64,000 nt of DNA from Candidatus Saccharimonadales bacterium (GTDB lineage: Bacteria; Patescibacteriota; Saccharimonadia; Saccharimonadales; UBA10212). This document shows positions 1,368 to 47,299 of this stretch, piece by piece (the stretch's first letter is position 1; each line of letters opens with the position of its first letter). The stretch spans positions 354,717-418,716 of the forward strand of contig JBEKOJ010000001.1 of assembly GCA_049521895.1 (NCBI GenBank), read 5' to 3'. The notes beneath the pieces are model-generated. The model worked only from the letters and a program-made list of their open reading frames with translations. It was not told the origin of the DNA and made no database searches. The translations under genes were made by a program, and so were the position numbers.

Positions 1368-1376
1368 TGTTAGAAT
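1368..1376 (+). promoter_or_regulatory. extended -10 element TGTTAGAAT (candidate promoter of the leader/tRNA-Leu transcript)
   Basis: TGnTAGAAT about 135 nt upstream of the tRNA; no convincing -35. Confidence 0.35.
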
Positions 1377-1423
1377 GAATCTGGTCTTAATCAATTTTAC
1401 GAGCCAAGCAGACACTTGCATGT

Positions 1424-1509
1424 AAAATTGAGAGGAGGAAGCGAGCCGAGGCTGGAAGTAAGCAAGTGTTAACGCGCTTACGGAAGCCGTTGTCTCGATT
1501 CCGACGAAG
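1424..1509 (+). other. conserved structured 5' leader (copy L1) abutting tRNA-Leu
   Basis: AAAATTGAGAGGAGG...GATTCCGACGAAGG; homologous to 8308-8390(-) and 47092-47173(-); GGAAGCGAG pairs with CUCGAUUCC; central hairpin GUAAGC/GCUUAC. Confidence 0.6.
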
Positions 1510-1596
1510 GGGCGAATGGCGGAATTGGTAGACGCGCTAGCTTCAGGAGCTAGTGTTCGCAAGAACGTGGAGGTTCAAGTCCTCTTTCGCCCACCA
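1510..1596 (+). tRNA. tRNA-Leu (anticodon CAG)
   Basis: Acceptor GGGCGAA/TTCGCCC, anticodon loop TTCAGGA, long variable arm, T-loop TTCAAGT, encoded CCA. Confidence 0.85.
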
Positions 1597-3549: not shown

Positions 3550-3635
3550 TGGTGGGCGAGGTGGGATTCGAACCCACAACCCCTTTCGGGGCACGGATTT
3601 TAAGTCCGCTCTGTAAACCATTCCAGCACTCGCCC
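3550..3635 (-). tRNA. tRNA-Leu (anticodon TAA)
   Basis: Reverse complement folds as GGGCGAG..CTCGCCC-A-CCA, anticodon loop CTTAAAA, long variable arm, T-loop TTCGAAT. Confidence 0.85.
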
Positions 3636-3709
3636 TGGAGGCGCGTACGGGTAATGCTCCCGTCTAATGGGTTTTGCAGACCCATGCCTAACTTCTCGGC
3701 CAACGCGCC
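3636..3709 (-). tRNA. tRNA-Cys (anticodon GCA), non-canonical T-loop
   Basis: Acceptor GGCGCGT/ACGCGCC 7/7; anticodon stem TGGGT/ACCCA with loop CTGCAAA; T-stem ACGGG/CCCGT; discriminator U73 plus CCA. T-loop is AGCATTA rather than TTCRAnn, and the D-loop lacks GG. Confidence 0.6.
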
Positions 3710-3749
3710 ATCGTCGGAACACCGACAAGGACATAACAATTATATACCA
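3710..3749 (-). promoter_or_regulatory. promoter (TGgTATATAAT) plus short leader hairpin ending in GTTCCGACGAT before tRNA-Cys
   Basis: Minus-strand read: TGGTATATAAT-tgttatgtcctt-GTCGG-TGTT-CCGAC-GAT followed directly by the tRNA 5' end. Confidence 0.45.
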
Positions 3750-7318: not shown

Positions 7319-7978
7319 CTATTGCTTATAGAAGGACTTAGCTATCAGTAAAGCGGTTTTAGCATCAGTCGAACTAAACCAACTATCTGCCTGAGTTGCC
7401 GTAAACTGTGTATTAGTATTGTCGTATGCCGCCAAAGATGCCGAGCTGCTCCCTGATGTGTAATCCAAGTACCCTACATTATCCGTTGTGCTACCGCTAG
7501 TTAATGAGTACTGCTGAATAAGTGTAGAATCTATCAGATAGTAAATCGGTGTATTTGTGGCAGTATAGTAGCCGCCAACCACCTTTAAGGCGGAATTGGA
7601 TTTTGCGAGCGAGTCAATACTTGTTGTATGGAAAGTCTGGGGTCCCCCAAAGTCAGATGAAGGATTAGAATACACTACCTGAACTGATTTTGATGGATTT
7701 TCGACTTGTGTATTAATAGAAACACCGCTTGTGAGCGTCCAATCCGACGGATACTGAAAACACTCTTTGGTACTTACATTGCAGTATGTTTTCCAGCCAG
7801 TATATGGATTCGCTTCAGTGGCCGCGGTCGCTGCACTTGTGCTGCTTGCAGTATTAAGAGTTTTGTCTGTGACGTTCTTAGTATGATAGACATACCATCC
7901 TATGAAACCTATCAAACCAATGATAATTACGATGAGCAATCCTTCGATTGCCCCGAATCCTTTTTGATTGTTTTTCAT
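7319..7978 (-). CDS. type IV pilin-like protein
   Basis: MKNNQKG/FGAIEGLLIVIIIGLIGFIGW: Gly-Phe site, Glu+5, hydrophobic helix. Confidence 0.7.
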   Translation of the reverse strand: MKNNQKGFGAIEGLLIVIIIGLIGFIGWYVYHTKNVTDKTLNTASSTSAATAATEANPYTGWKTYCNVSTKECFQYPSDWTLTSGVSINTQVENPSKSVQVVYSNPSSDFGGPQTFHTTSIDSLAKSNSALKVVGGYYTATNTPIYYLIDSTLIQQYSLTSGSTTDNVGYLDYTSGSSSASLAAYDNTNTQFTATQADSWFSSTDAKTALLIAKSFYKQ

Positions 7979-8017
7979 AAATCAATAGTACCAGAAATAT
8001 ACGAAAACACTTATGCT

Positions 8018-8094
8018 TGGTGCGGGTGACGGGACTCTAACCCGTGGCCTCTTCCTTGGCAAGGAAGCGCTCTAAACAACTGAGCTACACCCGC
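8018..8094 (-). tRNA. tRNA-Gly (anticodon GCC), atypical D- and T-loops
   Basis: GCGGGTG..CACCCGC-A-CCA, anticodon loop TTGCCAA; D-loop AGTTGTTTA lacks GG; T-loop is TTAGAGT. Confidence 0.8.
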
Positions 8095-8231
8095 GCTTTT
8101 GCCATTTGGCAAAAGCAATTATCAATTATCAATTTACATCTTTCAATGAATTATCAATGACTAATGCTCAATGAAAAGTTAATGACAAATGATAACTGCT
8201 AAATGTTAAATGCTTTGGCTTAGGCCAAAGC

Positions 8232-8307
8232 TGGTGGCGCCTCTCGGACTTGAACCGAGGACACAAGGCTCTTCAAGCCTCTGCTCTACCAACTGAGCTA
8301 AAGCGCC
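8232..8307 (-). tRNA. tRNA-Phe (anticodon GAA)
   Basis: GGCGCTT..GAGGCGCC-A-CCA fold, anticodon loop TTGAAGA, canonical GG D-loop, T-loop TTCAAGT. Confidence 0.85.
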
Positions 8308-8390
8308 TCGTCGGAACCGACGTTCGATTTCCATAAGCGCGTAAGAACTTGCTTACTTCCAACCTCAGGTCGTTCCCTCCTCTCAATTTT
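8308..8390 (-). other. conserved structured 5' leader (copy L2) abutting tRNA-Phe
   Basis: Sense: AAAATTGAGAGGAGGGAACGAC...GTCGGTTCCGACGA; about 75% identical to L1. Confidence 0.6.
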
Positions 8391-8471
8391 GCAAAGTATT
8401 GCTAAAACGGAACTTCGCAAAATTGTTAAGCTGCAAGAAATATTTTACGGGATTACCTCTGTTTATTCAAG

Positions 8472-8897: not shown

Positions 8898-9659
8898 TTA
8901 TTTCTTTTCGCGTTCCAAGAAGTTTTTTACGCTCTCGAGCGTGTCCATAAACTGGGCCGGAAAGACGATAGTGCTATTTTTTTCGTCGGCAATCTCGGTT
9001 AAGACCTGAAGGTTGCGTAGCTGCAAGGCGATTGGGTGTTTGGCGATAATATCGGCGGCATCGCCCAGGGCGCCAGCGCTTAACTTCTCGCCTTCAGCGG
9101 TAATAATTTTAGCGCGCTTCTCACGCTCGGCCTCGGCCTGTTTGGCCATAGCTCTCTGCATGGTATCTGGCAATTGGATATCCTTTAGCTCGACAGTGCT
9201 GACAAAAATCCCCCATTTGGCGGTTGCCCCGTCTAAGATTTTTTTGATTTTTTCATTGATAGCGATCGTTTGGCTTAAAACTTCGTCTAGCGAACTTTGC
9301 CCAACAACATTGCGAATGGTAGTCTGGGCAATCTGGTAGGTAGCACTTAGAACGTTCTCTATCTCGACTATCGATTTTATGGGGTCGCTGACTTTATAGT
9401 AGGCTACCGCCGCCACGCCGATAGAGACATTGTCTTTGGTGATGATTTTTTGGCTCTCGATCGGCAGAGTTACAATCCGCAAACTGACTTTGCGCATCTG
9501 GTCAACCAAGGGGATTATGAAGCGTAGACCCGGCTGCTTAATGTCTGGGCGCAATTTGCCCAGCCTGAAGATCACGCCTCTTTGATATTGGTTGACGATT
9601 CTGACTCCGGCCAAAACTAAAAGAACCACGATAACCGCTAAAACCAAAAGTGCCGCCAT
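8898..9659 (-). CDS. SPFH/band-7 (stomatin-like) membrane protein
   Basis: N-terminal TM, PHB domain pattern, C-terminal coiled AEAEREKRA segment. Confidence 0.8.
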
Positions 9660-9764
9660 AGCTTGTTTCTCCCCTACATCTTGATTGTAAGTCCTGGATG
9701 TGAGTCTGGCAATCAGATTGTGTTTTACCTCTGTTTTTTGTAAAATAATCAGGGTATGCTACAC

Positions 9765-9849
9765 GGGTGAGTGGTGAAATTGGTATACACGTAGCCTTGA
9801 GGTGGCTATGCCGAAAGGCGTGGAGGTTCAAGTCCTCTCTCACCCACCA
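9765..9849 (+). tRNA. tRNA-Leu (anticodon GAG)
   Basis: GGGTGAG..CTCACCC-A-CCA, anticodon loop TTGAGGT, long variable arm, T-loop TTCAAGT. Confidence 0.85.
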
Positions 9850-46684: not shown

Positions 46685-47091
46685 TGGTGGAGCTGGTGGG
46701 CACTACCCCCACGTCCGATTGGTAACTAACCCAGGTGACTACAAGCTTAGATCGCTTGAAATTTCTTAAGCCAAACTATAGAAACGATCCAAAACAGTCC
46801 GGCTAAAGTCCATTAAACTTAATAAGCTGCGGGCGGACCACCCAGCTGCTTACGCGATCAGATAATATGGCGCCATGTCGTTTTATCTGATGTCAAACGA
46901 TTGACGGTAGCCTATTAAATTAGGCTACGTTGAGAGCAAAGCTGCGGGGAGCGAACAAGTTCGCGACCGCCTCAAATGCCCTAGAGATAGAGTTTTTGAC
47001 AGCTATCTTGTTTGATCCGGCTAACGTGCAGATCAATCCGGCCTGCCACCTGAATTGTTAAAGTCCATTCGTCGAGCTTAAATTCAGCCCC
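46685..47091 (-). ncRNA. ssrA: transfer-messenger RNA
   Basis: 5' GGGGCUGAAUUUAAGCUCGACG pairs with 3' CAGCUCC-A-CCA (G3-U pair as in tRNA-Ala); T-arm-like GUGGG-GGUAGUG-CCCAC; internal tag-like frame ending ...FALNVA-TAA (tag start not determined). Confidence 0.85.
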
Positions 47092-47173
47092 TCGTCGGAA
47101 CCTACGCCTCTACCTCGTTTTGCATTAGTTTGCAAAAGCTTTGGTTTAAGGCTATGTTCCTCCTCTCATTTTT
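47092..47173 (-). other. conserved structured 5' leader (copy L3) abutting tmRNA
   Basis: Sense: AAAAATGAGAGGAGGAACAUAGCC...GGCGUAGGUUCCGACGAG; central hairpin UUUUGCA/UGCAAAA. Confidence 0.6.
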
Positions 47174-47271
47174 GCAAGCAAGACAATTACTTGTCTCGCA
47201 AAATTGGATAAGAGTAGGTTACGTGAAGCGGATGAATTTTTAAGGATATCACTCCGGTAGTGACTACAGTC

Positions 47272-47299
47272 ATTATACCATAAAAGGTTTGTAAAGCAA
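47272..47299 (-). promoter_or_regulatory. promoter TTGCTT-16-TGGTATAAT for the tmRNA transcript
   Basis: Extended -10 at 47272-47280 (reverse complement); implies a leader of about 165-175 nt. Confidence 0.5.

Follow-up and report, generated by a model that had tools for sequence, protein, structure and literature searches.

A conserved, strand-specific structured element that abuts transfer RNA and transfer-messenger RNA genes in Saccharimonadales and other bacteria

Ordinary leaders of precursor transfer RNAs (pre-tRNAs) are typically short, unstructured and not conserved. In a 64,000-nt stretch of a Candidatus Saccharimonadales genome (assembly GCA_049521895.1, contig JBEKOJ010000001.1, positions 354,717 to 418,716 of the forward strand; here called the window), the box TTCCGACGA ends directly before the mature 5' end of several stable RNA genes and closes a segment that folds on itself. 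An earlier note, made from the sequence alone, described this segment as a leader of about 85 nt that could serve the processing or regulation of a subset of stable RNAs. What, then, is the segment, which we call element E: a leader that these genes need, or something else that happens to end where they begin? We found that element E is an uncatalogued, widespread and strand-specific structured unit with exact boundaries, and we favor the reading that it is an optional module. The leader interpretation is partly right for this genome and too narrow for the family.

Element E in the window

The window contains four exact matches to TTCCGACGA (expected number, 0.36; none of 100 dinucleotide shuffles reached 4). 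As the earlier note had stated, each one ends 0 to 2 nt before a mature 5' end, i.e., 2 nt before tRNA-Leu(CAG) (gene start at 1510, + strand), 0 nt before tRNA-Phe (8307, - strand), 0 nt before the transfer-messenger RNA (tmRNA; 47091, - strand), and 1 nt before tRNA-Cys (3709, - strand). Three of the sites carry full-length copies of element E (L1, L2 and L3; about 115 nt each) that have AAAWTGAGAGGAGG...TTCCGACGA in common, while the tRNA-Cys site has only an 18-nt hairpin containing the box. The three shared copies had been recognized before, but the unit begins about 35 to 40 nt further upstream than was proposed, with a hairpin termed P1. A covariance model made from relatives identified exactly L1, L2 and L3 in the window (next match, 14.8 bits; E = 0.13). 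The features concerned are as follows (MFE, minimum free energy; types A and B are explained below).

1392..1507, + strand: L1, element E copy, type A (sequence; model, 55.0 bits, E = 3.8e-11; MFE, -44.9 kcal/mol, z = -4.8)
Parts of L1, + strand: P1 hairpin, 1392-1430; AGAGGA, 1431-1436; long hairpin, 1437-1502; GACGA, 1503-1507
1371..1376, + strand: -10 box TAGAAT, TG-extended (TGTTAGAAT), 15 nt 5' of P1 of L1 (sequence reading)
1510..1596, + strand: tRNA-Leu(CAG), downstream of L1 (ARAGORN; Rfam, 56.9 bits)
8308..8425, - strand: L2, element E copy, type A, 0 nt from tRNA-Phe (sequence; model, 40.8 bits, E = 8.8e-8; MFE z = -3.2)
8442..8470, - strand: putative promoter, TTGAAT-17-TAAAAT (sequence reading)
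8018..8307, - strand: unit headed by L2, tRNA-Phe (8232-8307) and tRNA-Gly (8018-8094) (ARAGORN, Rfam)
47092..47206, - strand: L3, element E copy, type B, 0 nt from the tmRNA (sequence; model, 113.2 bits, E = 6e-25; MFE z = -5.2)
47272..47277, - strand: putative -10 box TATAAT, about 65 nt 5' of P1 of L3 (sequence reading)
46685..47091, - strand: tmRNA gene (Rfam RF00023, 87.5 bits; no ARAGORN call)
3711..3728, - strand: tRNA-Cys leader hairpin UUGUCGG-UGUU-CCGACGA, 1 nt from tRNA-Cys (MFE, -9.3 kcal/mol, z = -3.1)
3550..3709, - strand: tRNA-Cys (3636-3709) and tRNA-Leu(UAA) (3550-3635), no spacer (ARAGORN)

The 2-nt spacer between L1 and tRNA-Leu(CAG) is AG. A consensus scan with strict -35 rules gave no match for the promoter of L1; transcription of L2 is predicted to start about 10 nt 5' of its P1. 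The hairpin before tRNA-Cys retains the final 10 nt of element E (GUUCCGACGA), with the box in Watson-Crick pairs, and is probably a remnant of the element; the covariance model gave no full match there. The window has nine tRNAs according to ARAGORN, plus the tmRNA found with Rfam. Among the tRNAs that the earlier note had listed as having no box, the tRNA-Leu(GAG), tRNA-Val(TAC), tRNA-Val(CAC) and tRNA-Glu units indeed lack element E and have short leaders right behind -10-like boxes, while tRNA-Gly turned out to be the second gene of the boxed Phe-Gly unit. tRNA-Gly and tRNA-Leu(UAA) have no box because they are the second genes of the Phe-Gly and Cys-Leu units, and the window copies precede the first gene of their unit in every case.

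Fold and covariation

Across the family, element E is about 105 to 125 nt long. From 5' to 3', the P1 hairpin is followed by the linker A-GAGGA and then by a long hairpin of irregular shape; GACGA forms the 3' tail. P1 (19 to 81 nt) has an invariant basal CAA/UUG, and the rest of its sequence varies freely among relatives. Helix P2 is usually GGAAY/RUUCC. The inner domain is of type A (GGCU-GGAA-GUAAGC...) in L1 and L2 and of type B (GCC-GAAGC-UUUUGCC...GGCAAAA-CGAG-GGC) in L3, and consists of two hairpins in copies from Clostridia. MFE folding reproduced the pairings described in the earlier note and gave the same two-domain structure for L1, L2 and L3 (z = -4.8, -3.2 and -5.2, respectively).

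The fold is also supported by comparison. In an alignment of 39 relatives, 92.3% of the cells assigned to pairs can pair, compared with 77.6% in column shuffles (0 of 500 shuffles reached the observed value), and compensatory changes on both sides were found in 24 of 37 pairs. When the partner columns were slid as a control, pairing was only 31 to 45%. P2 itself covaries (e.g., GUAAC/GUUAU, GAAGAA/UUCU and ACCAU/AUGGU). GU/UG pairs outnumber AC/CA pairs by 44 to 11 (p = 9e-6), and this excess favors the strand of element E as drawn here.

We propose that the tail GACGA pairs back on GAGGA (G4.A+5, A5.G+4, G6-C+3, G7.A+2 and A8.G+1). Among copies collected with the last base unconstrained, those with G at clamp position 4 end in A in 17 cases and in U in 2 (19 copies), while those with A at this position end in C (23), U (21) or A (9), so that position 4 covaries with the terminal base (Fisher p = 2.8e-8). 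Such a purine-rich clamp would set the last nucleotide of element E beside the base of P1. As for a kink-turn (box C/D-like) motif, tandem G.A pairs next to P2 would be possible (G7.A+2 and A8.G+1); the C-stem that it requires does not form, and covariation instead backs the pairing of position 4 with +5.

Comparison with syntenic relatives

The window is syntenic with Saccharimonadales metagenome-assembled genomes (MAGs) at 50 to 79% protein identity. The order KsgA, element E, tmRNA is kept in four genomes (the same order is found in L008, L068 and L073), and the syntenic tmRNA leaders differ by compensatory changes, which indicates selection in place. The fold is conserved over the long term at some loci, and the earlier proposal of a conserved structured leader stands in that respect. 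Element E is absent from other orthologous genes. In L009, tRNA-Leu(CAG) occupies the same intergenic region in inverted orientation, with a TAGAAT box, an 11-nt leader and no element E; tRNA-Phe has no element E there, while tRNA-Gly has one. These element-free leaders (11 to 15 nt) lie behind promoters of the kind seen in the window. What comes after the peptidase S11 gene in L095 is element E with tRNA-Cys, not element E with tRNA-Leu. Element E is dispensable for a given tRNA, and the idea that a subset of stable RNAs needs it as a processing signal fails on these tRNA-Leu(CAG) and tRNA-Phe genes as well as on the opposite-strand, stand-alone and multicopy forms described below. Nothing points to RNase E, which had also been named as a possible processing enzyme.

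Comparing L009 (3642-3728 and 6800-6875) with the window (1510-1596 and 8232-8307), we also observed that single tRNA genes (Leu-CAG and Phe) are inverted while the order of the flanking protein genes is kept.

Extent of the family

To delimit the family, one genome per species was scanned with the exact pattern TGAGAGGAGG-N50-70-TTCCGACGA. The scan gave at least 118 loci; about 95 of the matches listed have the full architecture, and the rest are chance matches in coding DNA. The hosts among the matches listed are mostly Candidatus Saccharibacteria/Saccharimonadales, together with other members of the Candidate Phyla Radiation (CPR; i.e., Woesebacteria, Curtissbacteria, Parcubacteria and Peribacteria), rumen Bacteroidales (Paludibacteraceae) and Clostridia (Oscillospiraceae, Christensenella and Monoglobus). 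A metagenome scan for the variant with A at position 4 yielded 120 loci, 64 of which are real; genomes and metagenomes together gave more than 200 matches. Viral contigs gave a single match in 2.9 million, and an association with phages was rejected on this basis.

Element E is not catalogued in Rfam 15. Over the window and 34 loci, Rfam 15 at its gathering thresholds reported only tRNA, tmRNA, rRNA and pemK, and nothing on element E; at E <= 10 over L1, L3 and one Clostridial copy, the only match was to the Clostridiales-1 RNA (RF01699; 19.7 bits, E = 0.037, gathering threshold 48). Full-text literature searches gave no description of the element. We rejected the Clostridiales-1 assignment, in which the outer helix borrows part of the tRNA. 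The match reflects hairpin 2 of that RNA, which resembles the type-A inner hairpin of element E (CUG-GAAG-stem-CGGAAG-CC), and Clostridiales-1 too is an orphan RNA of gut Clostridia. It differs in having no UGAGAGGA/GACGA core, and the outer closing helix that goes with its three hairpins is absent from element E; type B and Clostridial copies do not match it at E <= 10. The LOOT motif, for which one paper gives six helices and about 43 pairs, was also set aside; it is expected to be among the Rfam families, and Rfam reports no such match to element E.

Three further observations concern individual loci. L052, L068 and L083 (in a MAG labelled Binatia) and L064 and L094 (labelled Gammaproteobacteria) are Saccharibacteria/CPR-type loci with element E next to a tRNA or tmRNA and are syntenic with the window; these contigs are probably mis-binned. 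In L002, from a Saccharibacteria MAG, a GC-rich, structured-looking stretch of about 240 nt (7293 to about 7540) directly follows a copy of element E and may be an unrecognized stable RNA; RNase P RNA was considered for it and rejected, as Rfam gave no match. Three identical copies in a Christensenella MAG (L005, L034 and L109) are followed, 7 nt past GACGA, by an ops-like GGCGGTAG, which is probably a coincidence.

Placement and orientation

Among the genome-set matches listed, 47 copies have a same-strand tRNA 0 to 3 nt downstream, four have a tmRNA downstream (three loci and the window copy), and 6 abut the 3' end of an opposite-strand tRNA. The model-derived alignment of 55 loci (48 metagenome loci and 7 genome loci picked for an opposite-strand tRNA) splits into 24 same-strand, 24 opposite-strand and 23 other placements; in the unselected metagenome set, the numbers are 22 same-strand and 15 opposite-strand. 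In both orientations, the GACGN end faces the tRNA in every case. We neither know of nor found a precedent for such a strict tip-to-tRNA placement in both orientations.

The two orientations differ in their promoters. A -10-like box lies within 45 nt 5' of P1 in 74% of the same-strand copies (perfect TATAAT, 30%) and in 17% of the opposite-strand copies (perfect, 0%), compared with 14% of random controls (p = 1e-4). This enrichment implies that same-strand copies are leaders of tRNA units and that opposite-strand copies have no promoter of their own. P1 and P2 of the opposite-strand copies nevertheless keep the sense-strand bias (GU 13 versus AC 3; p = 0.02).

Copies also occur in tandem, in inverted pairs and alone. 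Two same-strand tRNA-Leu genes of L156 are separated by an inverted pair that takes up their spacer exactly; a long duplex of its two arms was considered and rejected, as the arms are too diverged and each folds alone. In a MAG of Clostridia (CALCQO01), an inverted doublet (about 280 nt, with the ends TCGTC...GACGA) recurs in about 10 near-identical copies at unrelated sites. One stand-alone copy comes with a TATAAT box of its own, and the last base of its GACGA is where an intrinsic terminator begins.

The contig of L156 is CPR-like and has seven copies in about 2.1 kb of a tRNA cluster (7882-8256 and 9024-9778), with two head-to-head doublets whose P1 hairpins are only about 12 nt apart. The Clostridia doublets are found at L001, L017, L042, L058, L075, L079, L091 and L093 (CALCQO01) and also at L096 and L113; their left arm leads into a terminator-like hairpin that uses the GACGC tail, with UUUUU behind it.

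Partial tRNA copies

At nine loci, an exact copy of the first 13 to 64 nt of a tRNA is flush with element E, and the intact gene lies 55 to 194 nt beyond. At four others (L133, L141, L159 and L094), the flush sequence is an antisense copy of the last 17 to 22 nt of a nearby opposite-strand tRNA; these fragments stop in the T-loop (...GGAYTCG|, about position 56), and the intact tRNA is about 60 to 90 nt away. Campbell-type integration would predict a tRNA fragment on the far (upstream) side of element E. None was found at these loci, where the fragment is always on the tRNA side. An integrase-type insertion would bring a partial direct repeat of the tRNA end, an integrase and an island; the 13 loci have partial tRNA copies, and the DNA between is only about 35 to 130 nt.

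The loci with 5' fragments (L010, L015, L018, L033, L036, L044, L092, L106 and L117) have the fragment followed by an unrelated spacer. Candidate origins of these fragments are an att-like duplication, a hybrid cDNA and illegitimate recombination.

Other features of the window

The tmRNA gene (46685-47091, - strand) was found by Rfam and missed by ARAGORN, so that a tRNA/tmRNA annotation based on ARAGORN only would omit it. Since no spacer separates tRNA-Cys from tRNA-Leu(UAA), the RNase P site of the latter is the 3' end of the former. The 137-nt spacer between tRNA-Phe and tRNA-Gly (8095-8231, - strand) is AT-rich, with short direct repeats (cattgataattg...). The open reading frames (ORFs) flanking the window copies encode a peptidase S11, an FAD oxidase, a Band 7 protein, KsgA and BacA.

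What element E may be

We put about even weight on the reading that element E, instead of being a required processing signal, is an RNA module that is optional and insertion-like. It draws on the absence in L009, the promoter-less opposite-strand copies, the doublet that exactly fills a spacer, the multicopy MAG, the tandems and the stand-alone copy. In the window, each of the three copies is placed after a promoter and before +1, which suggests that they are transcribed as the 5' leaders of tRNA-Leu(CAG), the tRNA-Phe-Gly unit and the tmRNA. RNase P removes 5' leaders in tRNA and tmRNA maturation, and by this established route it would cut element E off at +1; this cleavage would also set free an element E RNA, with its 3' end held in the clamp beside the base of P1. 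We infer that its most likely role is that of a self-contained RNA with its own 3' end set by an adjoining tRNA-like structure or terminator. That selection keeps the fold implies that the RNA, or a single strand of the DNA, does something.

Noncoding RNA ends are made by tRNA-processing enzymes in MALAT1/mascRNA, in plant tRNA-snoRNA dicistrons and in the 3'ETS-leuZ of Escherichia coli. As in these systems, a non-tRNA RNA is fused to a tRNA or tRNA-like structure, an RNase P cut would define an end, and a 3' end would be protected by structure. Element E differs from them in being bacterial, multicopy, upstream or antisense, and flush; its release as a stable RNA is predicted.

Several points weigh against the optional-module reading. 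It would be odd for a trans-acting RNA to have numerous diverged paralogues in a genome of about 1 Mb, and opposite-strand copies have no visible promoter, so that an RNA role for them is hypothetical. No transposase, integrase or reverse transcriptase is linked to element E among the ORFs flanking the window copies, and we found neither target duplications nor a conserved target motif 5' of P1 beyond C/A at -1. Some copies are flush with the 13- to 64-nt tRNA fragments, which are not possible RNase P substrates. Of most interest are two facts: promoter-less opposite-strand copies keep the fold, and the junctions fall at mature tRNA termini.

A dedicated cis-acting leader is an alternative that we think unlikely. 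Positions -1 to -5 would be held by the clamp in a helix that stacks on the acceptor stem, which would tune RNase P cleavage, precursor stability or the folding of selected stable RNAs; it could also offset the reduced RNase P RNAs of CPR bacteria. This fits the four window sites and the 47 genome-set copies (among the matches listed) that lie 0 to 3 nt from a same-strand +1, the promoters of same-strand copies and their position before the first gene of a unit, the tRNA-Cys remnant that keeps the box in a flush 7-bp hairpin, and the orthologous tmRNA leaders kept with compensatory changes. Like ordinary pre-tRNA and pre-tmRNA leaders, the window copies extend from the promoter to +1, end at the RNase P site and are dispensable for the mature RNA; unlike them, element E has a two-domain fold of about 115 nt that is conserved across phyla, holds its last five nucleotides in a helix and is found at places other than 5' ends as well. 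In CPR bacteria, reduced RNase P RNAs are common: P13, P14, P12 or the CCA-binding GGU is often missing, and two thirds are without the GGU (PMC8172020). A dedicated leader is hard to reconcile with the same tRNAs in L009 and the four other window tRNA units that do without element E, with the many copies in other lineages that face the 3' end of an opposite-strand tRNA (24 to 24 in the alignment; 22 to 15 when unselected), or with the stand-alone and multicopy forms. It also leaves out the copies in Bacteroidales and Clostridia, for which, to our knowledge, reduced RNase P RNA has not been reported.

We tentatively entertain, as a possibility that we think unlikely, a new RNA-based genetic element: either a ribozyme acting at its 3' edge or a non-autonomous retro- or single-strand element whose tip is joined to mature tRNA termini. 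These termini would be +1, the CCA end or 3' fragments ending in the T-loop. If true, this would explain the flush position in both orientations, the partial tRNA copies and the coming and going between relatives; copies landing between a promoter and a tRNA would have been kept as leaders.

Taken separately, we doubt the proposal of a mobile element, working at the DNA level or through RNA, with element E as its structured end. In one version, an HUH-type element that acts as a single strand, akin to a PATE, a REP or the right end of IS200/IS605, would use GAGGA, the 5' flank of a hairpin, to pair with a cleavage site at the GACGA tip. In the other, template switching or tRNA priming would join the RNA 3' end of a retro-element to mature tRNA termini, and the hybrid cDNA would then recombine at a tRNA gene. 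Presence and absence at orthologous sites, the two orientations that are always tip-to-tRNA, the sense-strand GU bias (13 to 3) that opposite-strand copies keep with no promoter, the inverted doublets with TCGTC...GACGA termini, the burst of near-identical copies in one MAG and the patchy spread of near-identical cores over phyla are all in line with mobility. The pairing of position 4 with the terminal base mirrors the guide/cleavage-site pairing of IS608; this pairing of GAGGA with GACGA fits tip pairing and equally fits an RNA helix. The partial tRNA copies, which begin at +1 or run from the 3' end to the T-loop (about position 56), resemble primer-copy footprints.

Element E shares with IS200/IS605 right ends, PATEs and REP/BIME sequences strand-specific hairpins, a 5' flank that could pair with the element tip, and inverted doublets, and its single copies, like IS200/IS605-type elements, have no inverted terminal repeats or target duplications. 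Unlike them, it has no conserved target motif, no Y1 transposase or TnpB was seen at the window copies, and its hairpin is much larger, with conserved internal loops; those elements are not known for a strict flush position at tRNA ends. The Mauriceville retroplasmid of Neurospora forms hybrid cDNAs with tRNAs, and retroviruses have a primer-binding site; junctions at mature tRNA termini, partial tRNA copies stopping in the T-loop and insertion at tRNA genes recall both. Element E differs in residing on bacterial chromosomes, where many copies are old and under selection, and no reverse transcriptase is linked to it. Several negative results further weaken the mobile proposal: the window copies have no transposase, TnpB or reverse transcriptase beside them, there is no conserved target or target-adjacent motif 5' of P1 and no target duplication, and the 2.9 million viral contigs gave one match. 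Moreover, the copies in any one genome are diverged and old, the compensatory change in syntenic copies indicates selection in place, and known hairpins recognized by HUH enzymes are far simpler than that of element E.

A self-cleaving ribozyme that cuts its own 3' edge after GACGA, whatever follows, seems to us improbable. Such a cut would leave the downstream RNA with a 5'-OH, and element E would define its own 3' end. The invariant CAA/UUG, AGAGGA, base of P2 and GACGA cluster around the exact 3' boundary, the same boundary lies beside tRNAs, tRNA fragments, terminators and unrelated DNA, and the size, variable peripheral helices, tandem, inverted and multicopy forms and patchy spread resemble those of known small ribozymes. 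Against this, element E has no similarity to Rfam ribozymes even at E <= 10, and no ribozyme class is known to cleave at its 3' edge unless it pairs with the strand downstream. The 0- to 3-nt spacers imply that RNase P would still be needed, and the promoter-less opposite-strand copies speak against a role at the RNA level there.

The reading of GAGAGGAGG as a genuine Shine-Dalgarno sequence of a small leader peptide, or as a docking site for the 30S subunit, is almost certainly wrong: the 9-mer could pair with the 3' end of 16S rRNA, but no shared start codon or ORF follows in L1 to L3 (as the earlier note had said of the start codon), its last two Gs are not exposed as that note had it but pair and covary with the CC of the 3' box (GGAAY/RUUCC; also GAGUAAC/GUUAU and the Clostridial GAGGAACCAU/AUGGU), and G or A at position 4 varies together with the terminal base of element E. 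The resemblance is a by-product of the P2 helix and the purine clamp, since the last two Gs belong to a covarying helix.

Other identities were tried and rejected. A T-box leader finds no Rfam match at E <= 10 and no terminator between element E and the tRNA; as specifiers, the P4 loops (4 to 12 nt) hold no consistent codon, and their complementarity to the downstream tRNA is inconsistent. Known ribozymes and riboswitches give no Rfam match at E <= 10. With the hammerhead, element E shares only GA-N-GA and a 3' GA; it lacks C3/U4 and A14, its P1 is closed off as a hairpin, and Rfam gives no match. The leaders of rRNA operons with boxA/boxB antitermination signals are likewise structured leaders of untranslated stable-RNA operons with a hairpin first; unlike them, element E has no conserved boxA-like sequence 5' of it or inside it, and no copy of element E was found upstream of the one 16S gene available (L050). 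The boxA candidate CAATTTTGCGAG is the 5' arm of P1, which is free to vary, and nothing 5' of P1 is conserved beyond C/A at -1. A miniature inverted-repeat transposable element is rejected because single copies have neither terminal inverted repeats nor a duplication, and the doublets with TCGTC...GACGA ends have no duplication. A TnpB omega-RNA with a tRNA-end guide, or with a target-adjacent motif at the left end, is rejected for want of a conserved 5' flank and of a tnpB-like ORF at the window copies, and the copies are too diverged.

Significance

Element E would represent a new widespread class of structured RNA or genetic element in the CPR, whose tiny genomes have scarce noncoding DNA, and its range extends to Bacteroidales and Clostridia of the rumen and gut. 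It accounts for "empty" stretches of about 115 nt next to tRNAs in CPR genomes, and it marks rearrangement breakpoints. As a module that ends exactly at the start of the downstream RNA, it could be a possible insulator or processing cassette. If one of the readings is true, the mechanism would be undescribed in bacteria, i.e., an RNA that relies on borrowed RNase P for the formation of its end or, alternatively, a leader that tunes RNase P where the RNase P RNA is reduced, a ribozyme acting at its 3' edge, or a mobile element that targets tRNA ends.

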